DNA from: Schmidtea nova
Lineage: Eukaryota
Reading direction: 5' to 3'
NCBI GenBank assembly: GCA_044892505.1
Contig: CM097882.1
Location: forward strand, 445,036,001 to 445,100,000
DNA: 64,000 nt
In this document: piece after piece, positions 15,419 to 59,538 of the stretch
How positions within the stretch are numbered: the stretch's first letter is position 1
Layout: the number at the start of each line of letters is the position of its first letter
The notes under the pieces: generated by a model
Database searches by the model: none
Seen by the model: only the letters and a program-made list of their open reading frames with translations
What the model was told of the DNA's origin: nothing
Position numbers and translations under genes: made by a program

Positions 15419-21453
<6,035 letters not shown>

Positions 21454-33799: not shown

Positions 33800-34563
33800 T
33801 GTTGGGTTATTATTCTGTAAGATCGGTTTACTGACCTGACTCCTCGTGCTCTTTAATTTTCGAAATCAATGAACCCAACACAGAACAATCTTTTTATTCG
33901 CGATCAACACAAATTACAGTTTTAGTTACACACACGTTTGATTAATTTACGCTTTCTTTCGATTCGGATTTGACTCTTTAATTCACAGGATGCTTTCTTA
34001 CTTTGTCTGTTTAGTCGTTTCAGGATCCTTTTCTATTCGCTTTCACAGTCTTTTTAATAATCTCTCTTTTGACTGTCCACTCGTCGGCCCGGTCCTCTGT
34101 TTTGCGCTGCCTTTTATAGTTCTCGCAAATAGCAATTAGGTTTTATCGATACCTAAAAGTTAATCAATTTCGGGTTTAATTGTCTTGCTGACAATTAATT
34201 TTGATTACCCTCGAATTGATTTTCCCTAATTGCCCCGACTTTGATCTCTCGGGTCTTTTGGCGCTCGGGCTTTCTTCATCGCTCGGGTTTCCCATTGCCT
34301 CGGGCTTCCCATTGTCTCGGGTTTCCCATTGAGCGATTAATTAATTTTAATTATTTTGTTTTTATTAAATAACTTTCTCTGGGGACCCCTTATTAAATTT
34401 CTATTATTATTTTTGGGTTCGTCTTTTGATTTGGTATTCAACCATACCCATTTCCCCCAGTGAATATTAATTTTACATTTTTGATAAATTTTAATTAATT
34501 TTTGCATTTTAATTTATTTCGATATTTCTTGTTACTTTTGTGATTTTTATACTAACCCCAACA
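33800..34563 (-). repeat. 3' LTR (764 bp)
   Basis: Near-identical to 49564-50327. I found only two differences (ttagtcg/ttaatcg and cccggtc/ccccgtc). Confidence 0.97.
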
Positions 34564-34580
34564 TATCTCACCCCTTTATT
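34564..34580 (-). promoter_or_regulatory. Polypurine tract
   Basis: The minus strand reads aaataaaggggtgagata immediately before the TGTTGGGG start of the 3' LTR. Confidence 0.75.
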
Positions 34581-35098
34581 TAAGATTCGTCCTCGAATCT
34601 ATTTTTCCATTTTTCTTGTTAACATGGTGGAGTCTACTCAATACTATAGATGTGCGTAATGATAATTGTTAATAAAAATTTTGATTATAAATAAGACGGT
34701 AGAGAAATCTCAATACCAAATATTATACAATTTAATATAATAATTTTGCCACTATTCTACTTCTGATAATATTAATATCAATAATAATTATACTTATAAT
34801 TGGTAACGATAATAGTAATAATAGTAACAATACTAACGATAATGATAATTTAATAATACTAATACTAATACTAATACTAATAACAACAAATATTATTAAT
34901 AATAATTTATTATAATCCTTTCATATTGATTATAATAACAATAATAATTAATTATAATAACTGTAATAATTATACTTATAACGATACTAATAACAATTGC
35001 AATAATGATAATAATGCTAATAATTCTAATATTAATGATATAAAAATTCTAATAATTCCAACAACAATGTTGTAATAATAATGATAATAATAATAATA

Positions 35099-35153
<55 letters not shown>

Positions 35154-35438
35154 GAATTCGAATAATAAATTGTTAACGATAAAGTAACAATAATTCATTT
35201 ATTTATTTATATTTTTATTTATTTTTTTTTTGCAATGGTCATATAATAATAATACTAACAATAAGTTGATAATTAATAGTTAATACNNNNNNNNNNNNNN
35301 NNNNNNNNNNNNNNNNNNNNNNNNNNNNNNNNNNNNNNNNNNNNNNNNNNNNNNNNNNNNNNNNNNNNNNNNNNNNNNNNNNNNNNNNNNNNNNNNNNNN
35401 NNNNNNNNNNNNNNNNNNNNNNNNNNNNTAATTGTTAA

Positions 35439-35771
35439 ATCGGCTTTGCCGATGTTTACTTTAAAATCGGCTTTGCCGATAATTATTTGTGTTACTTGTT
35501 TTAAATCGGCTTTGCCGATTATTATTTATTGCAAAAGCATCATCAAAATTGATATAGAACAATTTGTCAGCTCTCATAGAATCAAGCAGTGAAAATCATT
35601 CGATATCATTACCAACATTAAAATTTTTAAAACTGCATCTGATTGGATTTGAAAAGTTTTCATGTAATTAATTTTATTTCAATGATCGGCTTTGCCGATA
35701 ATTATTTGTTTTTCTTGTTTTAAATCGGCTTTGCCGATTATTATTTATTCCCTTTGATCGGCATAGCCGAA
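35439..35771. repeat. Array of six ATCGGC-NNN-GCCGAT palindromes
   Basis: Exact atcggctttgccgat at 35439, 35466, 35505, 35685 and 35724; variant atcggcatagccgaa at 35757. Confidence 0.9.
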
Positions 35772-36049
35772 AATAGAGTCAATGTTGGGTTGGGTGTTGA
35801 CTTGATATATAACCATCAGATAGAACTCATGCGATTGCAGATTGCAGTTTGATTTTTTTTTTTGATAATATTTTTGGTAACTTTGACGAAAATGATTTTA
35901 TGGCAAATCACATATTTCCGGTTGTTGTCTCTGATTGATTTTCATTACAAATCTTTCAATTTCTCTTTATGATTTTATAAAAAGGAACTTTGCAGCAGCA
36001 GAAGAGAAAAAGAAAATAGCTGCTCTGAAATGGTTTTCTATTCACATTT

Positions 36050-36420
36050 GGTTTCAATTGTTGGGCTATTTTTGGAATTGTGAAAAGGATCGATGGAAAA
36101 TTGGTATGTAGTCAATTTTTTTTTTTTTTTGTTAATTTTAGATTTACATAAATAATTTTGATTAATTTGATTAACTGTAGTGAGAAGATCTATAAACATT
36201 TTTAATGTTAATGATGATGATGATAATAATAATAAGTTTCAATTGTTGGAATATTTTTGGAATTGTGAAAAGGATCGATGGAAAATTGGTATGTAATCAA
36301 TTTTTATTTCTGTTAATTTTAGATTTGCATAAATAATTTTGATTAATTTGATTAACTGTAATGAGAAGATCTATAAACATTTTTAATATTAATGATGATG
36401 ATGATAATAATAAAAATAAA
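36050..36420. repeat. ~185-bp tandem duplication in the element's 3' region, amid (AAT)n tracts
   Basis: ggaattgtgaaaaggatcgatggaaaattggtatgt and gagaagatctataaacatttttaat each occur twice. Confidence 0.85.
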
Positions 36421-36421
36421 A

Positions 36422-36478
<57 letters not shown>

Positions 36479-37111
36479 CATGATAATACTACTAATATTT
36501 TGATAATGATATTAATAATAACAATTATTCTTTTAATAATAATAATTATAACAATATGTTCTCACTAATAATACAAATTTTTTTTTTGAACAAGNNNNNN
36601 NNNNNNNNNNNNNNNNNNNNNNNNNNNNNNNNNNNNNNNNNNNNNNNNNNNNNNNNNNNNNNNNNNNNNNNNNNNNNNNNNNNNNNNNNNNNNNNNNNNN
36701 NNNNNNNNNNNNNNNNNNNNNNNCGTAATAATACCAATAATTATTTATAACGTCTTTTATAATTGATCATAATATAAATGATAATGAATATACGTTACCC
36801 CTACTAATAATAATTATAACAATACTTTGATACTAATAATAATAATAATGAATTAATAATTATAATGATGATAATAACAATAATAATAATACTCTTAATA
36901 ATGTTTCTAACAATTTTTTTTTTTTTTTTTTTTTTTTTTTACTGACTATGATGTTAATGCTCTCGTATTGTATGAGGGTTATTTTTTATCATATTCATAA
37001 TTTCTATATTATTATTTTTTTGGTTTATTTAACTTATTTTGGGATGGGACGCCAATATCAAAGACAATAAAATATTTATTAATTAACTAAAATATATATA
37101 CATATATGTTT

Positions 37112-38578
37112 TTAGTCCAGTTTTAGTTCGATTTTTCCAACTTCACTTTTGTAACGGATAAATGTTTTTTCACGCTGGTAAATAATCCCATTTACCGTTA
37201 TGGTTTCACTTGCTTCTATTTGTGAATATTTTCTTTTTCTATTTTCAAGGTGGAGTATCGGTCCATTTTCATATGATATTGAAACTCTTGCGATAGACAA
37301 ACCGGTTATTACCTCAACGCTTTCTTCAATTGCCTCGAGATCATTTTCTGTTGCCAACTTCAATTCCGATTTCCCAATTTCCAAATCAACTTCCATATCC
37401 TCTGTCAAATCGATTTGCTCTGCCATTTTCTCAATTCCCACAGACAGGGCAATGGTTTTCGTAATTGCCGTGCTCGTCGTTGGCATTGTGTTTATGGTAT
37501 GAACTTTTCGATATTCCTCCAATGAATACTTCTTTGATGGGGTTGCTTTGGGAATTTGGATATCATCAATCCATGAATTTTCAATTTTTAAATATATTTT
37601 CCGAATGTTTTTGACATCTTCCAGGGCTGAATGGATGCGCACTTGCGTTTGTTCTCCAAGCCTTTGTTCAACCACAGTTTTCAGTTTGAAAAATTCACCT
37701 TTTCTCGATATCCCTTGCAACTGAAGTGCCTTTGCTGTGGACAAGTCTCGAATGCCATATAATTGATTTGTCCAAATTTTCAAATACTGGAGTTCTGCAT
37801 GCAAATCATGGCCAACCAATATTTTCCCAACAGTTAAATTCTGAATTTGTTTCATCTCCAAATATTGGTCGCATTGGTTCCTACTCGCAACCTCTGTTAT
37901 GCCATGTATTCTCGATTGGAAATGTCTCATTTTTCCTCTCGGCGTGAGGTATATATTTTTAATTATTTTCCCAAAATAATTCATAATGGCGATTGACAAT
38001 GGCACCATTTGTCCATTTTCTGATGTGCCGTATTCTGCGTCGATAAACAATATCCTGCTTCTTATTTCTTCTTGGTTTAATTCTTTTCGAATGAAGGATA
38101 ATCTTCTTTTCATCATATTTTCTGATATTGGTAGTAACGTTGGATCTGATGGCAATCCTGGCTCAGTTTGCGGAACTTCTTCTTTACTGTTTCTGAACCT
38201 TGTTTCCAGCGCGATTAGTGCGTCTTCATTTGCCGATCTAAGTTGCTTCTTTAATGCTTCCTCTCGCATTCTCCACGATGAGTCTTTGTGCATTTCCCAC
38301 CATATCCGCTGATTTTCGTCGATCATTTCCACTTTTCCTTTCAACACATGTAGTGTGACTTCTTCTTCATTCATTACTTTGCTATTTTCCATCAACTTTA
38401 CTCCTCCTTTTCTGCTTACTCTCAGGATTCTTGTTTTCATTCTTCTGTCATCGCTTCTTAAATAATTCGGTATTTTTGTATTTTCATTAATTTGGAATGG
38501 GCCTTGTCCCATATAGTTTCGATGCAGTTTGAGGTAGGCATCATAGATATTTGGTATCCACTGAATTTGTTCCATCAC
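37112..38578 (-). CDS. Element accessory ORF, 488 aa, with a REX4/ISG20-like DEDDh 3'-5' exonuclease domain (~37580-38060)
   Basis: ExoI ILFIDAEYG, then SIAIMNYFGKII, SRIHGIT, ExoII-like GKILVGHDLHAELQYL, IRDLS, and ExoIII IHSALEDVK (H-x4-D). Confidence 0.85.
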   Translation of the reverse strand: MMEQIQWIPNIYDAYLKLHRNYMGQGPFQINENTKIPNYLRSDDRRMKTRILRVSRKGGVKLMENSKVMNEEEVTLHVLKGKVEMIDENQRIWWEMHKDSSWRMREEALKKQLRSANEDALIALETRFRNSKEEVPQTEPGLPSDPTLLPISENMMKRRLSFIRKELNQEEIRSRILFIDAEYGTSENGQMVPLSIAIMNYFGKIIKNIYLTPRGKMRHFQSRIHGITEVASRNQCDQYLEMKQIQNLTVGKILVGHDLHAELQYLKIWTNQLYGIRDLSTAKALQLQGISRKGEFFKLKTVVEQRLGEQTQVRIHSALEDVKNIRKIYLKIENSWIDDIQIPKATPSKKYSLEEYRKVHTINTMPTTSTAITKTIALSVGIEKMAEQIDLTEDMEVDLEIGKSELKLATENDLEAIEESVEVITGLSIARVSISYENGPILHLENRKRKYSQIEASETITVNGIIYQREKTFIRYKSEVGKIELKLD

Positions 38579-38909
38579 TGAAATATTTATAATTTAAAAT
38601 TTTGTTTAATTTAAAAATTTGACGCTATCGCCAAGGTGGAATACCTTGAGTACCCCATCCTGGCTGATAACGGTATAAATAATAAATATTTAATAAAATT
38701 AATTACCTATTTAATTTTCAGTTTTATTCTAATTTATTAATTTAGGGATTCCCTTATATTTTTAATTTTATCTCTCTTCAACCAATCAAATCCGTTTCCG
38801 ATCGAAAGCGCAAATTTTACAATGAATCACATAAATATGGATAAAAGAAAGTTCATACTATTACCGTACAAATAAATTATTATAGTTGCATGCAAAATTA
38901 AATGTCTCA

Positions 38910-41900
38910 CTATACAAACGTTTCCTCGTAGACAATCCACGGTCTTGGTGTCCTGGATTGACGTACTGCATGATTGTTCATTTTTTGAAAGCAAATCAGT
39001 AGTGAGAGAAGAATAACAATGAGAAATGGTGTTGCACTAATAACAATAGTCGATAAAATAATACATGTTTTTGCATTGTCGTTAGATGAAGATGATAAGT
39101 TTTTCAGAATTGTCACATCATAGATATGAGAAGGAATGATTGTCGTTTGAAGTTTTTTTGTCATATTTTTATATACATAATTGTTTTTTGAATCATCGCT
39201 ATCAGTAATGTTATATGAAACTCGAACAAGTTTGTTTTCGACAAGAGTGATCTGCCATTGTTTGGAATGAGAAGTAAATCGATAATATTTGATTTTCATC
39301 ATAACAAATTTTGAATTCGATATAGATCTTAATCTTTGAAAATTTAAAATTTGATGTGAAATGTTACTTGTTAATATTGCCTGAATTTTCCCGCAATAAT
39401 GAATTTCGACTTTTTTATTAACTTCCGCTTGTCGGGATGCGTTTAATTTCTGATTTTTATATTCAAAGATGACTCGATTTGTTTCATTCACCAATGTCAC
39501 GGATTGTTGAGTGGAATAGATCTTGAACCATTGATTATCAATTTCAGTACCATTTTTCCGTAATGCTTTTTCGTAATAATGAATGACGAGATTATATGTT
39601 TTATGCAATTCTAAATTAACATAATGTACATAAGGTTTCTTGAGATTTAACGTATCGATCGTGTACTTTTCGAAAATAATTTTCACTTGTTGGGATTCAT
39701 GGGGTTCCCAATATACATTGATACCTTTTATTATTGGTTCTATTGATACTTTGCTATTTAATTTTTTTGTCCAAATTTCAATTTCAAATTGATGTTGTAT
39801 TTTTGTATTATTTTCTTGATATTGTTGTTGGGTTATTAACCAGGGATATTTGTAATTCATTGTTAAATCATGCGCAACGTACATATTGTTGTTAAAATTC
39901 AACTTTATTGGTGGATCAAAATAATTTAATAAATTATTTACTTTTATTTCGTCTCTTGGTTCACAATGATAGACCCATACCATTTGGGTACATGTTGCAT
40001 ATATATCAAATTTTTCTAAAAGTGGAACTCTTTTTATTGCATACATTGGAAAGATTTTAGTCGAATTTGTTCCCAAAACATTAATCATCATTACTGTTGC
40101 AATCAGTAATACTTTATTGATATATCCCAATGATGCGGAGTTTTTTGGATCCCTCTGCTTGCTGATCGTTTCATCTTGCGACTTTTTCTTTTTTGATCTT
40201 AGCTGATATTTATTGTCATCCATAACTGGCACTTTTTTGCATCTATTAGCATGAATGATAATTGTTCCGGCCTTTTTATTATTTTGTGGCCGTAGTTTTA
40301 AATTAGTTTCAGTGGTATCGCATACCAGATATGGTCCTTTAAATGGTCTTTGTAGCTTTGGTGATAAACCCTTAGCTGGCTCTGGTTTGTTTACATAAAC
40401 CAAATCTCCTATTTCAATACCGTGCGCATGCGCTCGTTTGTCATAACACTCTTTATAACTTTCCTGTTGATGTTTTATTTTGAGTCCTGCTTGAACCCAT
40501 ACTGACTGTAGTCTTTCTTGCATGACAACTTTATAGTTCGATACATCCATATATTGCGATATAGGTGCTTGAAATTTTAAATCTATTGGCATATTATTCC
40601 GTCGTAGATACATAAGATAGAAAGGTGTTTCGCCAGTACTTTCATTTACTGAATTTCGATATGCGAATAAACACGGTTTAATGAATAGATCCCAATCTTT
40701 TTGCTTTCTGTTTACGTAAGATGATATCATATTGATTAATGTTCCGTTGAACCTTTCAACTAACCCATCTGTTTGCGGATGGTACGGTGATGTACTGAGT
40801 TTCAATATTCCGAATAATTCCGTTATTGAATTAAATAATTCGCTTTGAAAGTTTGTTCCTTGATCTGTAAGTAACTTCTTTGGTGCTCCATATCGAAAGA
40901 TAATGTTTTCTACAAATATTTTTGCAACTGTTTCTGCCTTTTGATTCTGCATTGCATAGGCTTCTGGCCATTTAGTTAGATAATCGCAAAATACAACGAT
41001 ATACTTATTGCCATTAATTGTTTCCGGTAGTGGACCAACAATGTCCATTGCTGTCATTTCCATTGGAGCTCCTGGTACAGGCATAGGCTTTAATGGTACT
41101 TTTATTTTCCTTCCTGTATTTCGTCTGGTCAGGCACACTCCACAAGATTGACACCATTGTCTAACGTCTTGTTCCATGGTGTCCCAATAATATTTCAATT
41201 TCAACCTTGACAATGTTTTTCTAGCTGATAAATGTCCTCCTAACGCCCCGTCATGGTATATCAACAGTAATGCTTTTCGATGTTTTGTTGGAACAATAAT
41301 TAACAAGTTTTCATTTTTAACACATTTTAACAGACCGTCATGGATAATATATTTATGTTTTTCTTTAACTATGTGTTTCCAGTCGCTCTCTTTTTTGATA
41401 GTGACTGCATTTTTCCGTATTTGTTTTAATTCATCATCATTTTCTTGATCATATTGTAATTCTTTCATATTGTTTGCGGTTTTAATTGCCATAAATATTG
41501 TGTCATTATAATTTGTTTCATTCTGATTATTATAATTTTCTTCAGGAATTCTCGATAAGGTATCCGCATTTGCATTTGATTTACCTGTGCGACATTTAAT
41601 TTCAAAATCATATTCCTGTAGAGCGATTGACCATCTTATCAGCTTACTGGCTGAATCTCTATGCTTCATGAGCCATTGTAGTGGATTATGATCTGTAAAT
41701 ACAATAAATTTCCTACCAATTAGATATTGTCTGAACGTGGTTATTCCATAAACTAGTGCTAACGTCTCCTTTTCAATGGTAGAATAATTCTTTTCATGAG
41801 GTTTCAATGTTCTACTAGCATAGGCAATAACGTGATCTTTCTCGCCGTTAACCTTTTGTCCGAGTACGGCGCCTAATGCAAAATTACTTGCGTCAGTCAT

Positions 41901-44396
41901 TAAGATGAAAGGTATTTTAAAATTTGGGCATCTCAAAATCGGCTTTTTAATTAGACTTTCTTTGAGCAAATCAAATGCTTCTTGCTGAGCTTTTGTCCAT
42001 TTAAATTGAGCTTGTTTCTTTAATAGCATATTCAAAGGCTGTGCCACGTTTGAAAAACTTTTAATAAATTTTCTATAATAACTAGCTAATCCAAGAAATT
42101 GTCGAACTTGATCTACATCTTTCGGAATTGGGTAATTTTTAATTTTCTCTACATTTTCTGGGTTTGGTTGTAATCCATTGCGTGAAATAATATGACCAAC
42201 ATAAACTACTTCTGATTTCCCCCATTCGCATTTCGAGGGTTTTATTTTCAAATTTGCTTCTAATAATCGTTTGAATACTGTTTCTACATCCTTTAGGTGT
42301 TCCTGAAAACTACTTGAAAATATTATTATATCATCAATATAAACTAATGCATGTGGAATGTCACGCAAGACAAAATTCATACCTCTTTGGAACGTGGCTG
42401 GCGCTCCTGTTAAGCCGAATGGTAATACATTGAATTCATACAAACCTTTGCCGTCTGAAAATGCTGTTTTTCTTCTATCTTCTTCTTTTACTTTAAACTG
42501 ATTATATCCTTTATTTAGATCAATTACTGTGAAGAATTTCACTTCTCCCATCTGATCAAACATTTCTTGTGGAACTGGAATTGGATACGTATCTTTTCTT
42601 GTAACCTGATTTAATTTTCGGTAGTCAACACAAAATCTTAAATCACCGTCTTTCTTTTTGACAACGACTATTGATGATGAGAATGGTGATGAACTATCTC
42701 GTATTATTTTAAATTCTTTCATTGCTTTGATTTGTCGATCACTTTCTTCTTGATGTATATATGGAATTCTATACGGTCTTAATTTGATAGGTGTTTCGTC
42801 GAGTAGTGGTATCTCGTGTTCTATCACTTGAGTAAGTCCCAAATCATATTCGTGCCTTGCAAACACTTTATCGTATCTTCTCAGTAACGCCATAAATTCT
42901 CGTTTTTGTACCTCAGTTAAATCGTTGCTAACAACTTGTGGTTTTTTATAGATTTTAATGTTCCTCGGTAACTTTTGATCCTTTTCTGTTCTAAACTTTG
43001 TTAACCTTCCCAACTTTGTTTTGGGTTTCATTTGAATGGCTTTTGCGCTATGATTTGCTATTCTTACTGGTACTGTTTGATCCTTGATTTTTACTATCTC
43101 ATCACACATTGGAATATCATATTTTTCTACTAGCTTCTGATTTGGCTCAAATATACATTCGTCATCTGATGCACCTGTTACATTTGCATAACATATTACT
43201 TCGCTTCTCGCTGGCAATTCCATTGCTTGATTTAGAAAGACTTCTTTGTTTGCAATTTTACTGGGCTGTTCCTTTATTAATTTCCCTGTAGTTAAATCAA
43301 GAGCAATTCCTTGTAATTGCCGCATAACATCCATCCCAACTAAACATATTACGGGACTTTTTCTTATAACTGTTACATTATGCGTTATTTCTTTATCACC
43401 GATAGTTAATTTAGCTTCTAATTTCCCAATTACATCTAAACAGTTCTGCGACATTGATTTGATCTTTTTACTCGTTGGTTTCATATTTACTCTTTCTTTA
43501 CGCGTTAACATTTTGTCTGACACTATTGTGTGACTTGAACCTGAATCCAACAAGGCTTCGACCGTTCTTTCATTAAACTGTATGTTTATCCGAGGTTGTT
43601 TGGCTTCTCTCCCCATGGTCATCAGCGCATAACTACATGGTAGACCAAGCATGTTTTTCCGTTCAATTTCCGCACTTGTTGGCTCGATATTTTCTAATTC
43701 ACATTTGATATGATTTACCGGTTTCATTTCCTTTAATCTTTCACTTGGATACATAGGTGCTGTTGGCACAAATGCTGGTGTATACCATTTTGTAAGAGTA
43801 TCAATTCCACTCAGCTTTGGTATTGGTTCAAGTAAAAATGTTGATTCTGGCTTTATTTCGCTTCCGACTCTTCCTTTTTGAAAATATTTCGGTTCATTTT
43901 TATTCTTATCATTACCGTCATTCTTGTTATTATTTCTGTCACCAAATTCACATAAGGATTCTTCGCTCTTTTGATCGCTTTTCAATTGTGCTTTCACACT
44001 TGCCATTTCTTTATATTGATGATGTGTAATAAAAAATTTTGCCAAAAATGGAATGCAACTAATGATAATTTTCCATGACCATCCTGATATTACGTATATT
44101 CTATGAGCAGATAGCACTTGAGATATGATTACCTTTAACGTTACTGCGACCACATAAATTCCAATTAAACCAGCACATGCTTGTCCTAAGAACATAAACT
44201 TTCCCCAAATCTTTTCCATCGTTTTATACGTGGCTCTTTTGAAATGATCAGGTGTTAATAAATATTCATAATTTATTTTATCCTCTCCATTTGGTAGTAT
44301 GGTGTCAATCATTTCTGAGATTATTCTCTCTTTCTTTGAAGGGAATAATAAATTTCTTTGGGCTTCTTCAATATCATCACTTGCATAAAACCCCAT
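38910..44396 (-). CDS. Env C-terminus/TM, aspartic protease, RT, RNase H, integrase, then a second type-I membrane protein (1828 aa frame)
   Basis: WGKFMFLGQACAGLIG TM; LLDSGSS; RFCVDYRKLN, LPFGLTGAP, VYIDDII; MTDASNFALGAVL; H..GGH..C..C, DIVGPLP, TDQG, GLVERFN, FKGPY; hydrophobic VLLIATVMMINVLG and CIILSTIVISATPFLIVILLSLLICF. Confidence 0.95.
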   Translation of the reverse strand: MGFYASDDIEEAQRNLLFPSKKERIISEMIDTILPNGEDKINYEYLLTPDHFKRATYKTMEKIWGKFMFLGQACAGLIGIYVVAVTLKVIISQVLSAHRIYVISGWSWKIIISCIPFLAKFFITHHQYKEMASVKAQLKSDQKSEESLCEFGDRNNNKNDGNDKNKNEPKYFQKGRVGSEIKPESTFLLEPIPKLSGIDTLTKWYTPAFVPTAPMYPSERLKEMKPVNHIKCELENIEPTSAEIERKNMLGLPCSYALMTMGREAKQPRINIQFNERTVEALLDSGSSHTIVSDKMLTRKERVNMKPTSKKIKSMSQNCLDVIGKLEAKLTIGDKEITHNVTVIRKSPVICLVGMDVMRQLQGIALDLTTGKLIKEQPSKIANKEVFLNQAMELPARSEVICYANVTGASDDECIFEPNQKLVEKYDIPMCDEIVKIKDQTVPVRIANHSAKAIQMKPKTKLGRLTKFRTEKDQKLPRNIKIYKKPQVVSNDLTEVQKREFMALLRRYDKVFARHEYDLGLTQVIEHEIPLLDETPIKLRPYRIPYIHQEESDRQIKAMKEFKIIRDSSSPFSSSIVVVKKKDGDLRFCVDYRKLNQVTRKDTYPIPVPQEMFDQMGEVKFFTVIDLNKGYNQFKVKEEDRRKTAFSDGKGLYEFNVLPFGLTGAPATFQRGMNFVLRDIPHALVYIDDIIIFSSSFQEHLKDVETVFKRLLEANLKIKPSKCEWGKSEVVYVGHIISRNGLQPNPENVEKIKNYPIPKDVDQVRQFLGLASYYRKFIKSFSNVAQPLNMLLKKQAQFKWTKAQQEAFDLLKESLIKKPILRCPNFKIPFILMTDASNFALGAVLGQKVNGEKDHVIAYASRTLKPHEKNYSTIEKETLALVYGITTFRQYLIGRKFIVFTDHNPLQWLMKHRDSASKLIRWSIALQEYDFEIKCRTGKSNANADTLSRIPEENYNNQNETNYNDTIFMAIKTANNMKELQYDQENDDELKQIRKNAVTIKKESDWKHIVKEKHKYIIHDGLLKCVKNENLLIIVPTKHRKALLLIYHDGALGGHLSARKTLSRLKLKYYWDTMEQDVRQWCQSCGVCLTRRNTGRKIKVPLKPMPVPGAPMEMTAMDIVGPLPETINGNKYIVVFCDYLTKWPEAYAMQNQKAETVAKIFVENIIFRYGAPKKLLTDQGTNFQSELFNSITELFGILKLSTSPYHPQTDGLVERFNGTLINMISSYVNRKQKDWDLFIKPCLFAYRNSVNESTGETPFYLMYLRRNNMPIDLKFQAPISQYMDVSNYKVVMQERLQSVWVQAGLKIKHQQESYKECYDKRAHAHGIEIGDLVYVNKPEPAKGLSPKLQRPFKGPYLVCDTTETNLKLRPQNNKKAGTIIIHANRCKKVPVMDDNKYQLRSKKKKSQDETISKQRDPKNSASLGYINKVLLIATVMMINVLGTNSTKIFPMYAIKRVPLLEKFDIYATCTQMVWVYHCEPRDEIKVNNLLNYFDPPIKLNFNNNMYVAHDLTMNYKYPWLITQQQYQENNTKIQHQFEIEIWTKKLNSKVSIEPIIKGINVYWEPHESQQVKIIFEKYTIDTLNLKKPYVHYVNLELHKTYNLVIHYYEKALRKNGTEIDNQWFKIYSTQQSVTLVNETNRVIFEYKNQKLNASRQAEVNKKVEIHYCGKIQAILTSNISHQILNFQRLRSISNSKFVMMKIKYYRFTSHSKQWQITLVENKLVRVSYNITDSDDSKNNYVYKNMTKKLQTTIIPSHIYDVTILKNLSSSSNDNAKTCIILSTIVISATPFLIVILLSLLICFQKMNNHAVRQSRTPRPWIVYEETFV

Positions 44397-45460
44397 TTGG
44401 GCAATTTTTTTAATGATGTAAAATTTACCAAGTATTCTAGAGTGATCAATTCTAATTTATCCGGCGTTTTTACTCCTCGGTAATCTGGTAACGCAATCCA
44501 ATGATCTGGTGCTAATCGGTATAACGGAGCAAGTAATCTATTGCATTGAAGAACCTTTGGTTTAACGTGCTCCTCCAATAGTATCCTAGTTATTGGTTCC
44601 ATAAACCGCATTTTTCCGTTCATGCTCACTGGTAATTCGTTTGTGCACTTTTCATATTTCATTATTTTTACTGTTACCTCTTTACATCTGTAGCTATACA
44701 AAGCTTCTCCAAATATCCTAGCAAATACTCCATTTTCTGATATCAACATAGGCGCAACTAAATTTGGGTTTGTAATTACCATTGCCATTCGATTTCGAAG
44801 TATCTCTTTATTTAATTTACAATCATTAAGGATCATTTCTCGATATATATTCTCCATGATGTTCTGGCTAAAATGAAACAAAAAATCAATTTTATTATTA
44901 AAATAGTGAGTTAATTTAATCTCTGTCGAATGTATTCTCGTTTTAGCTTCGTGCACCATCATTTTGGATACATAAACGCCTTTATAATTTGTTGCATATA
45001 CCATTTGACCGCATTTACTGGTGATATCCTTTTTTATGAAGCGCATGCTATCCGTTGGCATGGTCGACATCAAAACCGTTGCCGTTTTCTTCATCCATAT
45101 CGGCGTTGATCTAATTGTTATATTTGGGGCATAATTATTATTAAAATTGTCTGGTCGTTCTCGAAACTGTTCTCCACTCAATTCTTTGAAATTCATAGTT
45201 TTTAAGTGCGCTAAATTACATTCCTGGGTTTTGACATTATACACAAGAATGGACTCTCCTGTTTGGCAATTGGTTTGTTTCATGTTACAAAACGGATGTG
45301 TCTGTAATTTCCCCGTATCATCATCAAAAGCTCCTTCAAATTCTCTCAATTCCGTTAAATATTCCTCTATTACTACAGACTGTTTGATTATCTTCCCATC
45401 TACTTTGTATGGTTCTCCTTCACAATCTCCATCTTGTTTCATTACTCCTTTTACGACCAC
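44321..45460 (-). CDS. Middle part of a chuvirus-like glycoprotein ectodomain; in frame with the upstream ORF after a single TAA
   Basis: Cys-rich pattern GDCEGEPY, FCNMKQTNC, CGQMVYATNY, LNDCKLNKEILRN.L, GEALYSYRCKEV, CTNELPV, RFMEPITRIL, CNRLLAP.Y..DHW. Confidence 0.8.
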   Translation of the reverse strand: MVVKGVMKQDGDCEGEPYKVDGKIIKQSVVIEEYLTELREFEGAFDDDTGKLQTHPFCNMKQTNCQTGESILVYNVKTQECNLAHLKTMNFKELSGEQFRERPDNFNNNYAPNITIRSTPIWMKKTATVLMSTMPTDSMRFIKKDITSKCGQMVYATNYKGVYVSKMMVHEAKTRIHSTEIKLTHYFNNKIDFLFHFSQNIMENIYREMILNDCKLNKEILRNRMAMVITNPNLVAPMLISENGVFARIFGEALYSYRCKEVTVKIMKYEKCTNELPVSMNGKMRFMEPITRILLEEHVKPKVLQCNRLLAPLYRLAPDHWIALPDYRGVKTPDKLELITLEYLVNFTSLKKLPKWGFMQVMILKKPKEIYYSLQRKRE

Positions 45461-45463
45461 TGT

Positions 45464-48400
45464 TTATCTAATTCTATGATTTCGCTTTGCTTTTAATTTA
45501 ATTTCCGAATTTATTTTTAATTCTCCTGTTTGAAAAGCAGCGAGGCAATTTTCCGGCATTACTTCCACTGGCCGTGGGATTGTATACATTTTTATCATTG
45601 AAGTATGGCTCCACTTGCCACAGTAAAATATAAAGGAAGTGCGCTTAACTATACATTCTCTTACTGTTGTTCGTCGTAAGTCAGATTCTTGATATACATG
45701 ATATTTCACATCATTTTCTATCTTTAATTTTCTTGGATATGCGTCTGAACACTCTGCCATATCTACAACTGAATAAATTTTCCCCATTTCTGTTTTTGAA
45801 CAGTCATACGCTGTCATACTCGTTACCTGTGTGATTCCAGCACATAAAATAATTATCATAAAGATTGCCCAAGGAAACATTATTGTCTTCCTCTTTTCTG
45901 GACTAACTCTGACATTTAGCGATTTTTGAGGTAAACTTTCTTTATTACTTTCGTTTTCATTTATTATAAACATTTTCATCAACTTGTCCCAACCTCCAAT
46001 CTTTTTAACCCAGCTCATTAAGTATTCGTTTATATTTCGAGCAGCAGTATCTATTAAATTTTCTAACTCATCTGATTTCATGATCTTATGAGCACCAATT
46101 TCCAAAATTACATAAGCTAAGCTCATTAATGTTACTTCTGTAGTAATTCCATTTCTAGTTAATTTCTCGATTACATCTTTGTCACAAAATCTTTCATTTT
46201 TACCAAACCTTTGCATGATGCTAGGGAGTCTGTTTCTCACTTCATTTACTATGCCTCCCAATTCATATTTTTCATCTACCTCCATTTCACACATTGGGTA
46301 TACTGCTTTAGTCAAGCCTTTTAATAATGCTTTGGTTTTATCTACTTCCTGTTCCAATCGCACAAGACCTTTCTTTATTTCATATAAAGTTCTCGGCTTC
46401 TTAGTATTAATTTCATTATTCATTTCGCCTTTAAGCTCCGCCAATTCTTGCACTTTTGTTAATTTATACTCATTTTTGTTATTCTTTTTGGTTTCCTCAT
46501 CATCCTTTATTACTTCGTTTATTTCTTTGATTTCTTTAACCTCATTTTCATCATCATTTTCTCTGTCTGTATTTGATCCATCAGATTTGTCTATTAATTC
46601 AAATTTCTGTTCCTTAATCACTGTTACACAATTTATCAAATATCCATTTCCACTATCGGAACGTAAATATCCATTTTCATCTAACTCTTGTGGCACAAAT
46701 CCACAATCAAATAAATATTCATCATCATCTAATTCTTCTCCTTTAAACATAAATATAATAATTCCATCTTTTCCTATTCTTTCAGCAGCTCTTTTTCTTA
46801 ATTTCCGAACTTTTGTGCACCAATGCTCTACTATATATTCAGTTTTACCATAATCTTCGTAATCTAATGCTATTGTAAACGGATTCAATTCTATTGTAGT
46901 TTTTCTAAGTTTTTTGCCTAATTGTCGTACTAAATTTCTTAAATTTTCTCTATATTTTGATTTTTCATACATGTATGGCCTTATTGTATCTATAATATCT
47001 AATTTACTATCTCTCTCAATTTCAATTTCTTCTATCAATCTTAATTTTCTAATAATTTCATTTGCATCCCCTTTACACAAAATATCCTTTAATTCCCTAC
47101 AAATTTTCTGTGATTCATCTTTTATTATTTCATTGTTTCTATTCATAAATACTATCTGTACTCTGTTTTTATTCTCAGGTGTAATACCACAATCTATTAA
47201 TATTTCCTCGTCATTTAAACATCTATTTTTAAATTTTACTTCCTTTATCCATTTTCCACTATTTTCCTCTAATCTCTTTTTAAATTCCTTTACGCACTCT
47301 CCTATTTCACAACGAATACACATCACATCATTATTACTTTCATCAACAACATCAATAACAATAAAATCTAACCATGTTTTCTCTCTGAACAATTTTCCAA
47401 ATATTTTCATTATTTTCTCAGTTTCAGTTTTATCTTTTGAATTCTCATTATTATAATCAGCACACATTTCAATTACAGTTTTTAATTTTTGTATACTCAT
47501 CGGCATTTGACTCAATTTCTTTAGCATTGTCATTATTTTTGACGTCTCTTTTACTTTTGCCTCCATTAAAACTTTTGTTCTCGACAAAATCATTTTTATT
47601 TTTTCTGTTTCTAATTCATCATTTACTACTTCCTTCATTATATCTGTCTCTGACCCTTCTGATTGCGATTCATACATCATATGATTATCAGCTTCTTCGT
47701 CTGATTCAAATTTACACATTAATTGATCCAATCGTTTACCCATTTGCTTTATCTCTTTTTCAATTCTTTCGTTAGCATCATCGGGTTGTACAAAAGCCAC
47801 ATTATCAAATTTTGATTTATCATTTTGAAATCTGATTTTCTTTAATATAGGTCTTTGAAATTTTCCATTATTCTTTGGGCATGATCTAGCCATGTGTCCA
47901 TATCCTCTGCATGAGTGACATTGAATTTGTCCTTGGAGATTCACTCTATCTCTCTGTGGTGATGGTGATGTTGACGGAGATCTCGATCTTGCAAAGCAAT
48001 TTCGTGAAGAATGGCCTTTCCTTCCACAATTATAACACTGCATATTATCACTAGCTCTTTGATCATTGTTGCCCCTTCTCTTGAAGGTTTTCTCGACATT
48101 GTCTTTCAACCAATCTGGCCACATCTTTCTTGGACTCCGTTGCGAATTATTTTTAAACCAACATTGACTATTACTGTGCCCTTTTCGTTGGCAATTATCA
48201 CACTGAACAGGACTTGGGCTTCTTCGAGCGCTGTTTTTAAACCAACATTGATTTACTTGATGTCCCAATCTTTTACAATAACTACATTGAATTGGCCTTT
48301 CTCTCTCTTCATTTGGGCTGTTTGACGACTTTCTTGGCTCGAATTTCACTCTGAACTTTGGTGATGGACTAGTTGATTTTTGCAAAAGAGTCTCTCTAAC

Positions 48401-49066
48401 TGGAGTTACCGATTCATCTCTCGTTTCATTTACAATTGCAAAGGATTCTGTTGTCTGTTGTGTGGTTTTGAGATTCAATTCAATCTTCATGGCCTTTTTA
48501 ATCAATTCATCGAAATTGTTGAAATCTACATAACACAGTGCTTTTTTGATCTCTCTTTTTACTCCTGACAGAAATTGATCTTGTAGTAATTCTTTCACTT
48601 GTTTCGTCACATCCGGTTGTTCTGGTTTCGCTTCAAAGGCTTTTTCTGCAAGAGTTGTTAAATGATAAGCGAACTCACTTACCGATTCATTTGACTTTTG
48701 TACTCGGTTGTAAAATTTTTGGCGCATTATTCTTTTGATATCGCCACCGATTAACTTGGCTGCCAATGCATCTTTTAGCTTTGTCCAATCATTTGCGATA
48801 AGTCTTTTGTCGATCTGTTGCCAAGCTTCTCGTGCTGCACCTTTCAAATATAATGGCAACCTTTGTACCATAATTGATTGGCTCCATCCGTATGCTGTCG
48901 CGTACATATAGTAATCTGCCATGAAATCAACAAAATCAATTGGGTCTCCTCCGTATTGCTCTACTGGCAATTTCTGACAACTTGCAAAATCACTACCATT
49001 GTTTGTGGGAGTAGTAGACATGGGTATTTGATCATTATTATTTGAATTACTAGCCATATTTTCCAC
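45464..49066 (-). CDS. Gag (capsid-like region plus 4 CCHC knuckles), 2 ubiquitin-like domains, Bcl-2-like domain, TM/signal peptide and Env N-terminus (1200 aa)
   Basis: YGGDP..F...Y...A..YGW..LPLYLKGAAREAW (retrotransposon gag); four Cx2Cx4Hx4C; FKNRCLNDEEILIDCGI and FKGEELDDDEYLFDCGF; LMSWVKKIGGWDKLMKMF; PWAIFMIIILCAGITQVTS-MTAYDC. Confidence 0.92.
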   Translation of the reverse strand: MENMASNSNNNDQIPMSTTPTNNGSDFASCQKLPVEQYGGDPIDFVDFMADYYMYATAYGWSQSIMVQRLPLYLKGAAREAWQQIDKRLIANDWTKLKDALAAKLIGGDIKRIMRQKFYNRVQKSNESVSEFAYHLTTLAEKAFEAKPEQPDVTKQVKELLQDQFLSGVKREIKKALCYVDFNNFDELIKKAMKIELNLKTTQQTTESFAIVNETRDESVTPVRETLLQKSTSPSPKFRVKFEPRKSSNSPNEERERPIQCSYCKRLGHQVNQCWFKNSARRSPSPVQCDNCQRKGHSNSQCWFKNNSQRSPRKMWPDWLKDNVEKTFKRRGNNDQRASDNMQCYNCGRKGHSSRNCFARSRSPSTSPSPQRDRVNLQGQIQCHSCRGYGHMARSCPKNNGKFQRPILKKIRFQNDKSKFDNVAFVQPDDANERIEKEIKQMGKRLDQLMCKFESDEEADNHMMYESQSEGSETDIMKEVVNDELETEKIKMILSRTKVLMEAKVKETSKIMTMLKKLSQMPMSIQKLKTVIEMCADYNNENSKDKTETEKIMKIFGKLFREKTWLDFIVIDVVDESNNDVMCIRCEIGECVKEFKKRLEENSGKWIKEVKFKNRCLNDEEILIDCGITPENKNRVQIVFMNRNNEIIKDESQKICRELKDILCKGDANEIIRKLRLIEEIEIERDSKLDIIDTIRPYMYEKSKYRENLRNLVRQLGKKLRKTTIELNPFTIALDYEDYGKTEYIVEHWCTKVRKLRKRAAERIGKDGIIIFMFKGEELDDDEYLFDCGFVPQELDENGYLRSDSGNGYLINCVTVIKEQKFELIDKSDGSNTDRENDDENEVKEIKEINEVIKDDEETKKNNKNEYKLTKVQELAELKGEMNNEINTKKPRTLYEIKKGLVRLEQEVDKTKALLKGLTKAVYPMCEMEVDEKYELGGIVNEVRNRLPSIMQRFGKNERFCDKDVIEKLTRNGITTEVTLMSLAYVILEIGAHKIMKSDELENLIDTAARNINEYLMSWVKKIGGWDKLMKMFIINENESNKESLPQKSLNVRVSPEKRKTIMFPWAIFMIIILCAGITQVTSMTAYDCSKTEMGKIYSVVDMAECSDAYPRKLKIENDVKYHVYQESDLRRTTVRECIVKRTSFIFYCGKWSHTSMIKMYTIPRPVEVMPENCLAAFQTGELKINSEIKLKAKRNHRIR

Positions 49067-49542
49067 TTGTTTCTTATTTCGAAGATTATAAGATTTCTTT
49101 TGTACAACTTTTTCTCGTCTAAATTTTAAAATATTACAATTTTTAATTTTACCTTTTGTTTTAATTTTGACTTGATTTTTGGCAATTGGATTTTATCGAT
49201 TCTTTCTTTTCTGTTCAAGCTTTTTACTCTTTTATTTCAACTGATACAATTTATTTTCACTCTTTTTTTTTTTCAACAATTAATCTCGTTTTGTTTAGTT
49301 TTCTAACTTTAATTTCTCTTTTTACAATTATTCGATTTTACTTTTCAACAATTTTCTCTCTGATTTTATTCAATTATGTCGATTAATATCGTTTTCTTTA
49401 TTTATCAAATTCAATTTTCTATAGCAATTTATCTCTCCTTTTCTGTGATTCACTCCTTCACCGACCTTTAGATCACGTCGGTTATTATCGTAACAATTTT
49501 TCAACTATTCAATATTTTCACTATGCTCTCACCGACCCTCGA

Positions 49543-49560
49543 ATCACGTCGGGCTCACCA
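49543..49560 (-). promoter_or_regulatory. Primer-binding site, tRNA-Trp type
   Basis: The minus strand reads TGGTGAGCCCGACGTGAT, 3 nt inside the 5' LTR. It differs by one base from the avian retrovirus tRNA-Trp PBS TGGTGACCCCGACGTGAT. Confidence 0.85.
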
Positions 49561-49563
49561 AAA

Positions 49564-50327
49564 TGTTGGGTTATTATTCTGTAAGATCGGTTTACTGACC
49601 TGACTCCTCGTGCTCTTTAATTTTCGAAATCAATGAACCCAACACAGAACAATCTTTTTATTCGCGATCAACACAAATTACAGTTTTAGTTACACACACG
49701 TTTGATTAATTTACGCTTTCTTTCGATTCGGATTTGACTCTTTAATTCACAGGATGCTTTCTTACTTTGTCTGTTTAATCGTTTCAGGATCCTTTTCTAT
49801 TCGCTTTCACAGTCTTTTTAATAATCTCTCTTTTGACTGTCCACTCGTCGGCCCCGTCCTCTGTTTTGCGCTGCCTTTTATAGTTCTCGCAAATAGCAAT
49901 TAGGTTTTATCGATACCTAAAAGTTAATCAATTTCGGGTTTAATTGTCTTGCTGACAATTAATTTTGATTACCCTCGAATTGATTTTCCCTAATTGCCCC
50001 GACTTTGATCTCTCGGGTCTTTTGGCGCTCGGGCTTTCTTCATCGCTCGGGTTTCCCATTGCCTCGGGCTTCCCATTGTCTCGGGTTTCCCATTGAGCGA
50101 TTAATTAATTTTAATTATTTTGTTTTTATTAAATAACTTTCTCTGGGGACCCCTTATTAAATTTCTATTATTATTTTTGGGTTCGTCTTTTGATTTGGTA
50201 TTCAACCATACCCATTTCCCCCAGTGAATATTAATTTTACATTTTTGATAAATTTTAATTAATTTTTGCATTTTAATTTATTTCGATATTTCTTGTTACT
50301 TTTGTGATTTTTATACTAACCCCAACA
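49564..50327 (-). repeat. 5' LTR (764 bp) with TATA (TATAAAAG, 49875-49882), AATAAA (49657-49662) and ~18-bp U3 repeats (~50010-50095)
   Basis: Matches 33800-34563; motifs read on the minus strand. Confidence 0.97.
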
Positions 50328-51073
50328 ATATACATTTTTTTGAATTCAAATTTTTATATTTTAAGATTTTATATATTAATCGTAAATTTTTTCTATGAAA
50401 TTTCGAATTTGGAATTTTATAAAATGATAAAAATTTTTATATAATAACAATATTTTCGATTTGTAATTTTCATGGGTTTCAATATAATTTTTGATTTACA
50501 AACTCTTAGGAAAATTTTTGGTTTACAATTTTTTCATTATAAATTTTTCGCAATATAATAAAAAGTAAATTTTTATTTTTTATGATCAAAAACGAAATCT
50601 AAATAATAATAAATTTTTATCCACGAATTTCGCAATCCAAATAAGAATTCAATCTAAAAATTCTATATACTAAATAAAAATACAAGTAAAATAAATTGTA
50701 AATTTTTTCAAAGAATGGTTTTCGACATCAGGTAAGGTGAATTTCGGTTTCGTTCGAGCATGAATTTCCCAACCAAAGTACGCGCGAATTTTTCGAGACA
50801 CTTCACTTAGGAACTTCAGGCTCCCGAAAACAAGGTTCACTGGAGAAAATTATTTAGATAATGAATGAGGTTTAATTCAGATCAATCAATACTTGTCTTC
50901 ATAATTCGTTTCATTTCGTGATCATTATATCAGCTTTGAGCATTATATCAAACGATTCTCTTTTCAATGTTAACTTTTTATTCTACTTGTGTTTTCGGAT
51001 AAGATGGTAATTGTTGTGAGAGTGAAGGCGAATGACGGGTAACATATTCTTGTACAGTTAAATTATATAATGG

Positions 51074-56693: not shown

Positions 56694-57519
56694 ATCAACA
56701 TTTTTAATTTTTCTTTTTTCTTTATTTATGCCTCAAATTGAAATTATTCGTTTTTCTCGCTGTAACAATGTATAGACAGAATTTTATTCTCTACAAGATG
56801 GCCAAAATGAAAATTTAAAATATTGTGTTTTGCGCGCTGCACACATGTTTTGTTGTTATTAATTGGTTTCAATTGAAAAAATTAATTTAAATTCATTTGA
56901 TGGAAAATTCGACATATTTTCGGGACGAAAACTGGCCAGGCGAATTTAACCTTTTGTCTCGCTTGGCAGAGATGGATAAATCGTTTTTGGAAATTAGCGG
57001 TAAGTTGAATTTTATTGTTAATTATTTAAATATCTCAAATGAAAATTTAAATAGTAATTTTGTACAAAGTAATTCGGGATATTTTGATAAAAGTAAAAAT
57101 AAATTTGCTAATGTAGATTCTGATAATAATGTTTTCATTTGATAACTATGAAGGTGATAACTATGTTGATGATTTTAAAATTCCTTATCCTAAAGTGTAT
57201 AATCTTTGCAATAAGCATAATAAAAATGAAACTTTTAATAAAACCTTCACAGAGACTAATCTATATCGAAATCTCAAAAACTCTGAATATAAGAATACTA
57301 CGATTAAGAAATTAAATGAACACAATGTAGAGAAAAATTTATTAGAAAATCAAAGTTTTGGAGGTCGATCTGATTCAGCTTTAGATCGAATTGTTTCTGT
57401 TTATGGTTCTTTGGAGTCCCCGGGCAGGGACATTCATGATCTGAAAATAACAATTTTTAATAAAAATCAAAAAAAATAAATCTAATTTACTTGATATTGA
57501 AAATTCTAATTTACTTGAA

Positions 57520-59532
57520 ATGAAATCAAGTAAATTAAACAATCAGAATTTTTATAATAATTCTAATGTTTCACATCAATCTGGTGAAACTGGAAATAAC
57601 TTTGAAAAAGTAAAATTATTTGATAAAGAAAATTCTAATTTGAATATAAACTTTAAAAATCAAAATAAATCAAATTCAAAATCTCGTTCTGGTTCCACTT
57701 ATAGAAATAGTTACTATAATAAAGATAGTTATTCTAAATTTAATGATAACAAACTTGAAATGAAATTTCCTAGATTATTAACCAAAAGGGAAAAAAATTC
57801 ATTAACACAATTATTCCCAAAATATCTTTCTCTTTTAAAGTTAAAGGAATCAGTCAGAAAATCTGATTTAATTAATAATGATTTGTTAAATATAAAAAAA
57901 GTGGATAATCCATTGGAGATTGCAGGTTTTGAGAGTTTCTTTTATAGAAACTATAACATATGTGTGTTTTTAAATTTTGAACCTCTTAAAGTAAAGGCAG
58001 TTAATAATAAAGCACAAATACCCACCGTGAAAACATTTTTGATTGGATCGAACATCTTGATGGTTAATAAAAAGCAGACTAAATTCATTCCTGCCCCATC
58101 AATTATTAAACGATTCTTATGTTCCTTTTCGTCAAAACTTGCAAGGACAGTCTCTATTAAAAATCCAAAGGCCAAGGAAATACAAATAAATAATATTCTT
58201 TTTGAAATGAGACAACGAAAAGAACTCCCTGATTACCTTATAAACTCAGAAATAAAATATGTTGCGGGTAACTTCATGATGTTGGATCTTCTTAGCGGTT
58301 CTGAATCGGAAGATACCAGTCCATACCAAGCTGCTACTGAACTGTCCCGGTCACAATTAGTTAACCTATTTAAGTCACACCCTGAACTTGAGGAGCTATG
58401 TTTTATTGAGAACACATATGCTAATCCCCAAAATATAAATAAATTAATTATGAAATTAAAACTAGAAAATAAATTTCCAGAGCAGATCTCATTTGTAGAG
58501 GGTAAATTTATTATTAGAAATTCAACAGCAAATGGAGTCAAAGTGCACGCAGTTGGTACATCTGATATAATGTTCAACTTAGGTTTGCTGAACTTTGTTG
58601 AGATGTCAAAAGATGACAGTGTGTTTAGTTCTCTTCTTGATGAACAGCCCTCATCTCAAAAGCTGGTTGATATCATTTTTTATTTAAATTATTTAAAATT
58701 AAAAGATTCCCTAAAATATAACTCAGAACCCAGCTTTGATGTATACGTACTGAACTATCTCAGAAATTGCTTCTTAATGCATTCGATCACGACTATTGAA
58801 GAGTCTTATAATTTTGACGTTGACACTATTTACATCTGGGGTTCAGAGATGGTCAGTAAGCTTAACAGTTCTTCATACTATTTCACTAGTTGTCAAGAAA
58901 GACTTTTGAAACTAAAACAAGTGAATCTCTCTGAGGAGATTGATAAAATTCATGACATCATCTCCCCCAAAACCATTTTAGAAATAAACAATTTCCTGGC
59001 AGTTGTCGATAATTCTCTACCTAAAAAGACAGACCAGATGAAGGCCTTAGTAAACATAAGCAATAAAATCAATGAATTTCAATCCGAGTTGAGTAATAGT
59101 GATGTTGTTAAAGCAAAACGACTCTTGTTCTTTGTAATTAGAGACAAGAAAAACTTTCTTAAAGCCAACAGAGTTAACTTCCGACTTCCTCGACATTGTA
59201 GAAAGATTTGTACTTCGAGTATGAGTGTCTACATTACAAAGCTTCTTGAGGTTCTGCTTCCGTTCACAACAACAAGTAATTTTCAACCTGATACCCTAAA
59301 TCTAGAGACTATCAACGAATCCATCGATAACATAGAAGACGAAAATCCTTCTCCTATAGTTGATGAAGATGACATAGATAATTTAAGAAAGAATCAAGTA
59401 AAGAAGCGTAAACTAGCATGTGATATCGATGAAATTCAGTCATCTGCAATAGAGAGCAAAAGTAATGAGGAACCTGAGCTTCCTTTGAAATCTTTTAAAT
59501 ATGGTAAGGGAACGGGAACAGGAAATAAATGA
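57520..59532 (+). CDS. N-terminal part of the non-LTR polyprotein, unknown domain(s)
   Basis: 670-aa ORF in the same frame as 59539, separated by one TGA (GNK*RCVP). Confidence 0.65.
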   Translation: MKSSKLNNQNFYNNSNVSHQSGETGNNFEKVKLFDKENSNLNINFKNQNKSNSKSRSGSTYRNSYYNKDSYSKFNDNKLEMKFPRLLTKREKNSLTQLFPKYLSLLKLKESVRKSDLINNDLLNIKKVDNPLEIAGFESFFYRNYNICVFLNFEPLKVKAVNNKAQIPTVKTFLIGSNILMVNKKQTKFIPAPSIIKRFLCSFSSKLARTVSIKNPKAKEIQINNILFEMRQRKELPDYLINSEIKYVAGNFMMLDLLSGSESEDTSPYQAATELSRSQLVNLFKSHPELEELCFIENTYANPQNINKLIMKLKLENKFPEQISFVEGKFIIRNSTANGVKVHAVGTSDIMFNLGLLNFVEMSKDDSVFSSLLDEQPSSQKLVDIIFYLNYLKLKDSLKYNSEPSFDVYVLNYLRNCFLMHSITTIEESYNFDVDTIYIWGSEMVSKLNSSSYYFTSCQERLLKLKQVNLSEEIDKIHDIISPKTILEINNFLAVVDNSLPKKTDQMKALVNISNKINEFQSELSNSDVVKAKRLLFFVIRDKKNFLKANRVNFRLPRHCRKICTSSMSVYITKLLEVLLPFTTTSNFQPDTLNLETINESIDNIEDENPSPIVDEDDIDNLRKNQVKKRKLACDIDEIQSSAIESKSNEEPELPLKSFKYGKGTGTGNK

Positions 59533-59538
59533 AGGTGC

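Follow-up and report, generated by a model that had tools for sequence, protein, structure and literature searches.

Can an LTR retroelement carry a Bcl-2 protein within its own polyprotein, and what would such a domain do there? The question is raised by a stretch of 64,000 nucleotides of Schmidtea nova DNA (hereafter the window), in which a sequence-only reading had placed a Bcl-2-like domain inside Gag, followed by a tail anchor doubling as the signal peptide of the envelope protein (Env). Taken as a whole, the best explanation of the locus, to which we give a probability of about one half, is a host-derived Bcl-2 domain in a retroelement polyprotein that favours survival of the host cell.

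The domain belongs to a Ty3/gypsy LTR retroelement of 16.5 kb on the minus strand (33800-50327), delimited by LTR comparison and Pfam matches (Table 1). A four-base target-site copy, ATAT, flanks both LTRs (33796-33799 and 50328-50331), and the primer-binding site may resemble a tRNA-Trp site. Domains follow the order Gag-Ubl-Ubl-Bcl-2-Env-Pol (Ubl, ubiquitin-like domain) along one Gag-Env-Pol polyprotein; between the LTRs, no coding ORFs were seen beyond those listed in Table 1. The Gag zinc knuckles, read in the translation, are four CX2CX4HX4C motifs, and the six-row Ubl profile matches ISG15 at E 2e-4 and poly-ubiquitin at E 9e-11 summed over repeats. In the window copy Env is interrupted twice, some 118 codons from its start by an in-frame stop and farther on by a frameshift; the frame from Gag to Bcl-2 is intact. 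At least 150 copies, all 94-100% identical, are present in the same genome (the best 150 of 2954 candidates were scored); among the 150 listed, 22 have open frames of 3405-3442 aa and 7 contain a stop inside the 217-residue query. With this identity and these long frames, the element family is young, abundant, and built as one polyprotein.

Table 1. Features of the retroelement, in order along its minus strand apart from the LTRs; coordinates are window positions.
Feature	Position	Strand	Remarks
5' LTR	49564..50327	-	TGTTGGG...CCCAACA on the plus strand; 765 of 767 aligned bases equal to the other LTR
3' LTR	33800..34563	-	adjoined by a purine tract; ATAT target-site copy 33796-33799 before it on the plus strand
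Primer-binding site	49543..49560	-	18-mer starting TGG
Gag, capsid-like region and four CCHC zinc knuckles	47860..49057 (lower bound approximate)	-	PF03732 E 9e-7, PF00098 E 1e-8
Ubiquitin-like domain 1	47150..47413 (approximate)	-	six-row profile; Atlas 0.80 (lead only)
Ubiquitin-like domain 2	46628..46903 (approximate)	-	profile; 71% identity in sister family A2
Bcl-2-fold domain, helices 1 to 8 (predicted)	45959..46351	-	BH2 kept; BH1 degenerate, BH3 probably so
Polar linker	45896..45958	-	length differs among families
Internal Env signal peptide (predicted)	45818..45895	-	basic n-region KRK, hydrophobic core, V-x-S before predicted cut
Env, gB/mononegavirus-type fusion glycoprotein	43887..45817	-	PF24664 in three pieces, E 6e-16, 4e-36, 1e-21
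Pol: protease, RT, RNase H, integrase and C-terminal extension	38913..43601	-	Pfam; hydropathy
Accessory ORF, ISG20-like DEDDh exonuclease domain	37112..38593	-	E 1.5e-7 (PDB)

Several further parts of the element deserve description in their own right. A helical segment stands before each ubiquitin-like domain (46900-47125 and about 47400-47700, minus strand), and a comparable segment precedes the Ubl in the related proteins P0003 and P0005 and in the sister families B and C described below. Between protease and RT, where Burro elements carry a dUTPase-like domain, lies a conserved segment of 97 residues, for which a four-row profile found no PDB match. The Pol extension (38913-40130, minus strand; ~400 residues) has a signal-like helix at one end and a transmembrane helix at the other, and resembles a second type I membrane protein; Pfam and Atlas gave no match for it. 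The accessory ORF is ISG20/REX4-like, and family C has a comparable frame after Pol; the Burro section of PMC6431247 makes no mention of such an exonuclease ORF. Elsewhere in the window, at 1895-14991 and 16320-21037 on the plus strand, exons were assigned by eye to a KIF4-like kinesin and a KDM5-like demethylase; there are also a Tigger/pogo-like transposase (8105-9560, minus strand) and a non-LTR retroelement (57451-64000, plus strand). In this retroelement RT is preceded by an Ulp1-like cysteine-protease region at the N-terminus and followed by a restriction-like endonuclease at the C-terminus, and by eye it is presumably NeSL-like.

The peptide quoted in the sequence-only reading is encoded on the minus strand in a single open frame of 1242 codons (45467-49192). 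On its own, the window protein matches PF00452 at E 0.07 and 12-14 bits, below the curated cut-off of 31.4 bits, and the best matches of the window domain among PDB sequences are Bcl-2 chains at E 0.05; a fold predicted from the single sequence was discarded at pLDDT 48. As these matches are weak and the alignment-free fold is poor, the single sequence is insufficient as proof. The PF00452 check that had been suggested gives its significant results at the level of families. Sister families exceed the cut-off at the same polyprotein position, reaching up to 34.9 bits, and the protein P0004 passes as well. When the same genome was searched with PF00452 (150 of 1679 candidates scored), the matches comprised host genes and many frames close to 3000 aa in length, the longest reaching about 3080 aa. 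We assign these frames to two sister families of the element, B and C, in which the domain is likewise followed by the helix and the AYDC motif; families C', D and A2 were found in addition. The window domain matches families B/C/D at E 3.5e-5 over 129 columns and is 44-51% identical to that of A2, and a profile built from elements only detects Bcl-xL at E 4e-7, the match covering the half with BH1 and BH2, or at 9e-9 with more rows. Among the PF00452 genome matches listed are also about a dozen host Bcl-2-family loci. Exons of two adjacent Bax/Bak-like host genes lie at L166:6395-6575 (minus strand) and L035/L037, one of them with a clear BH3, LASIADTL.

An HMM search with the element profile over 1.84 billion proteins returned 11 matches. 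Element context is seen in four (P0003, P0005, P0006 and P0009), P0004, P0007 and P0010 are short fragments that group with elements, and P0008, P0011 and P0012 are host-type Bcl-2 proteins; P0002, which had the best E-value, was dropped as a repeat artefact. Word-based protein searches with the domain gave nothing at E 0.001 (1130 and 2047 candidates), which is weak evidence because the HMM search later gave these 11 matches. We regard the domain as almost certainly a Bcl-2 homologue.

Folding with an alignment of 14 non-host rows, from which the host-type P0008, P0011 and P0012 were left out, gave a model with pLDDT 84 and pTM 0.77. All 46 rows shown by Foldseek against the PDB are Bcl-2 family members, none of them at E 0.001. 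Realignment to Bcl-2A1, which re-examines Foldseek's own matches, runs from helix 1 to helix 8 with an rmsd of 2.4 A over 128 of 146 residues (residues 20-150 of the predicted model with 4-151 of Bcl-2A1) and a Z of 14.8, on a scale where helical bundles can score about 13 by chance. In a search of viral structures the top rows are viral Bcl-2 homologues, with a best E of 9e-3, and sequence identity in the structure matches is 11-19% to the cellular Bcl-2 family. The model is not fully independent of the profiles because both use the same sequence signal. We are nonetheless confident in the predicted eight-helix Bcl-2 fold, and the structure prediction with Foldseek comparison, a check suggested beforehand, gave the helical bundle that had been proposed. 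The limits proposed for it (45815..46270) fare less well: the predicted fold spans 45959-46351, and an edge at 46270 removes helix 1. Its placement inside Gag holds for the reading frame, in which ~500 residues separate the domain from the zinc knuckles upstream and two ubiquitin-like domains stand before it.

Motif conservation within this predicted fold is uneven. BH2 (WVKKIGGWDKLMKMF, starting at 46012 on the minus strand) had been called convincing, and rightly so: its residues W133, G138, G139 and W140 are invariant in alignment A1 and align to BH2 of Bcl-xL. BH1, described from the outset as degenerate and without NWGR, reads LTRNGITTEV here against LFRDGVNWGR in Bcl-2, so that NWGR is wholly replaced by TTEV in the window family. 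The NWGR glycine survives in 1 of 19 element rows, and the position of the BH1 arginine is K/R in 13 of 14 rows outside the window family and its sister A2. An apparent retained BH1 at L041, INWDR, was rejected as a single-copy change, since other copies of its family read INRDR. The helix at the BH3 position is LGGIVNEV in the window family and ISSLADNI in family C (alignment A1), with a shift of register in alignment A5. From BH3 to BH1 the stretch is ~7 residues shorter than in Bcl-xL, by our own count, so the peptide groove may be altered. The window domain misses the strict marks of Bcl-2 proteins, namely the Pfam cut-off, NWGR, and a tail anchor of its own.

With regard to origin, the suggested phylogeny against host Bcl-2 genes places the 14 element domains in one group against 12 host rows (support 97/93), which fits a likely single capture of the domain from a host gene. 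Support for placing the element group with host rows L036/L038/P0012/L039 is no higher than 94/79, and two host rows of this tree, P0008 and P0012, had entered it through the element profile. A search with the Env alignment returned 10 polyproteins, 2 with the Bcl-2 domain, 1 with a trace seen by eye (P0019), and 7 with none. On an Env tree of 16 elements the distribution of the domain needs at least 3 changes on well-supported branches, and its history is most simply read as one gain followed by repeated loss. Two kinds of relatives may be mentioned here. A copy of sister family A2 (L158:3448 onward) has a 3107-aa open frame with an in-frame internal deletion in Env, and P0020, P0021 and P0022 are related Gag-Env-Pol polyproteins lacking Bcl-2, with two to four aspartyl-protease-like stretches after Env and, in two of them, C2H2 fingers there as well.

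Selection was examined in 50 copies, comprising the window copy, its 29 closest others and 20 hand-picked lower among the 150 listed. Counting variants present in at least 3 of the 50, and bearing in mind that all these numbers are small, the domain has 10 synonymous and 8 non-synonymous variants (w 0.20), the acidic linker 3 and 11, and the start of Env 4 and 0. Between families, w is about 0.3 for the domain and 0.04-0.18 for Env; the Env rows of old C' copies and of L158, which are frameshifted or deleted, were ignored. Between C and D the domain (about 0.3) is below the linker (0.48); between the window family, A, and A2 it equals the linkers (0.30 vs 0.30-0.32, at a dS of 1.3-2.1, near saturation), with Env at 0.04. 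This last comparison, together with the repeated loss on the Env tree and the nearly erased version in P0019, would suit a decaying passenger, formerly useful and now retained solely through the need for an open polyprotein frame whose product folds. We consider that highly unlikely, as all eight helices are modelled confidently, protein identity is 48-49% in the domain vs 32-38% in the linkers, and shared variants are skewed to synonymous changes. Overall, the comparisons suggest moderate selection on the domain.

What, then, is the hydrophobic helix behind it? The open frame 45467-49192 contains a single strongly hydrophobic segment, residues 1103-1121 (mean Kyte-Doolittle 2.21), which stops just before TQVTS/MTAYDC at 45817, exactly where the sequence-only reading had seen it; the PF24664 Env model begins at residue 1110. 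In all 17 elements compared, including 7 without the Bcl-2 domain, the helix starts 19-26 residues before the A[YF]DC motif (A[YFG]-type), and in 16 of them small residues occupy -3/-1 of a site two residues before the AYDC-type motif, cleavage being judged by hydropathy and the -3/-1 rule only. The helix is found in 10/10 Env-related polyproteins, the 7 without a Bcl-2 domain among them, and its distance to BH2 ranges over 29-61 residues in elements, vs 14 and 19 in the host proteins P0008 and P0012. It travels with Env rather than with the Bcl-2 domain, and because its spacing to Env is fixed, also where the domain is missing, we take it to be the internal signal peptide of Env. The design recurs in the element: behind integrase stands another signal-like helix, with a transmembrane helix after it.

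The proposal that a tail anchor doubles as the Env signal peptide therefore survives in its second half, with a predicted signal-peptidase site before Env, and not in its first. That the captured gene brought its own tail anchor, later taken over by Env, would account for a helix placed after the Bcl-2 domain, as in cellular Bcl-2 proteins. It is largely refuted, and very improbable, in view of the 7 relatives that have the helix and no Bcl-2 domain (among them the three that branch farthest away in the Env tree), of a spacing that is fixed to Env and variable to BH2, and of the repeated arrangement behind integrase.

If the helix is the signal peptide of Env, it would route Env into the ER, where signal peptidase would cut before M-T-A-Y-D-C. 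The part preceding the helix would remain cytosolic and, by this topology, retain the helix after cleavage as a C-terminal anchor, holding the Gag-Ubl-Ubl-Bcl-2 product on the cytosolic face of the ER. Very probably, then, the Env signal peptide leaves the Bcl-2 domain tethered to the ER; anchoring by the retained helix would apply equally to relatives without the domain. This side of the ER is also a site of action of cellular Bcl-2 proteins. The position of the domain, always directly before the Env signal peptide, and a hydrophobic core that is conserved while motif residues drift could also point to a structural role: a helical bundle close to the membrane that, during particle assembly, would position Gag at the ER next to Env, as a spacer or as a docking site. 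With 7/10 related polyproteins doing without the domain and a linker to the helix of anywhere from 29 to 61 residues, such a role seems distinctly unlikely.

Under the reading we prefer, in which the domain favours host-cell survival, the captured Bcl-2-fold domain, the last Gag-side domain of the polyprotein, would likely keep the host cell alive during expression of the element, dampening Bax/Bak-type death or ER-stress signalling as viral Bcl-2 proteins do. Such dampening would probably not use the textbook NWGR contact, which the window family has lost. We judge a death-blocking role of the domain to be evenly poised: doubt arises because NWGR is lost and because many relatives are without the domain, and in its favour the Burro1 RING-BIR protein, an IAP, protects stem cells from caspase death, a result cited second-hand in PMC13465017. 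A complex was also predicted between the domain and 35 residues, BH3 included, encoded by a Bax-like exon of the same genome; run with the alignment unused and controls not folded, it gave a score of 0.01 and a mark of 0.34 and speaks for neither side.

A Bcl-2 fold need not serve apoptosis. The poxvirus proteins A46, A52, K7 and B14 are Bcl-2-fold scaffolds that block immune or stress signalling, and a comparable scaffold against innate-immune or stress signalling would be compatible with the missing NWGR, with the shortened helix 3-4 region, and with a cargo of two ubiquitin-like domains and an ISG20-like exonuclease that points to host defence. We hold it unlikely, since the structures most like the domain are cellular and herpesviral regulators of apoptosis, BH2 is kept, and the basic residue of BH1 is kept in most families.

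The viral Bcl-2 homologues compared here (gammaherpesvirus v-Bcl-2/BALF1, iridovirus, ASFV, adenovirus E1B-19K and the amphioxus adintovirus Bcl2) share with the element domain a compact eight-helix fold and divergent BH motifs. They are free-standing genes of DNA viruses, whereas the element domain is embedded in the polyprotein of a retroelement and lacks its own tail. Bcl-2A1/BFL-1 and Bcl-xL resemble it in fold and in BH2, and differ in NWGR, in the length of the helix 3-4 region and in having their own tail anchor.

The sequence-only reading knew of no Bcl-2 domain in a retrotransposon Gag. This novelty does not stand: the Burro section of PMC6431247 notes a BCL2-like motif in Burro-2, -3 and -4, with a Ubi2/SUMO-like domain before it and a mononegavirus-like Env in frame between BCL2 and protease, and calls the function of the motif worth testing. 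As in the planarian Burro/GYPSM1 elements described there, which are giant and gypsy-like, one frame holds Gag with CCHC knuckles, ubiquitin/SUMO-like domain, BCL2-like motif, mononegavirus-like Env and protease, a layout seen here in the 22 open frames among the 150 copies listed, the window copy being broken within Env. In contrast to the >30 kb and 4873 aa given there for Burro, the element measures 16.5 kb and about 3440 aa; its Ubl domains number two and its knuckles four, an exonuclease ORF lies toward its 3' end, and at E up to 1 its four ORFs show no MATH, BIR or ankyrin Pfam match. We would class it as a compact Burro-like errantivirus, with the layout of Burro and not its size or other cargo. 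According to PMC8532177, Burro elements are PIWI-silenced.

Six GAG-ENV-POL errantiviruses of Schmidtea mediterranea are listed in PMC13524379, among them Smed_errantivirus_1 with an HSV/gB-type Env. The likeness to gB-type Env errantiviruses extends to a Ty3/gypsy Pol, Env between Gag and Pol, LTRs with a primer site and many near-identical copies; Smed_errantivirus_1 has the same gene order over a span of about 14.8 kb and an Env stretch in which 70/84 residues equal those of the window (by eye), a match that by itself points to a planarian host. A Bcl-2 cargo is not described there, 'Bcl' being absent from the main text and 7 supplements of PMC13524379. In the literature covered we found neither the anchor/signal-peptide idea nor an experiment on what the BCL2-like domain does; both may be treated in Grohme 2018 and Lee 2026 (Dev Cell), which lay outside that coverage. 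What is new here is the full predicted fold, one probable origin with repeated loss, and the loss of NWGR, the domain arrangement itself having been published.

A BIR search of this genome gave at least 150 matches, most of them in 399-aa frames. At L120 and L125 (G000:C1, about 54.62 Mb and 487.52 Mb) lies a multicopy element with a RING-type ORF, a BIR ORF and a third ORF that combines a Ubl with a DTGA protease-like part. We rejected these two copies as a Burro1-like element with a further Bcl-2 family, as no RT or Env motif occurs in the 50-kb region around either.

A more ambitious account, which we put forward tentatively and think rather doubtful, would have one ancient capture arm a clade of planarian Gag-Env-Pol retroviruses with an ER-anchored death inhibitor, made together with Env and without NWGR in the window family. 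If it were true, thousands of copies would constitute a second anti-apoptotic cargo beside the Burro IAP, tuning stem-cell survival. A direct test would be straightforward with the domain limits, the predicted fold, families that differ in whether the BH1 arginine is retained, and naturally occurring relatives in which the domain is absent. If it does block cell death, the domain would amount to a retroelement-borne mimic of Bcl-2 and give these abundant elements a second means of influencing stem-cell survival in planarians.
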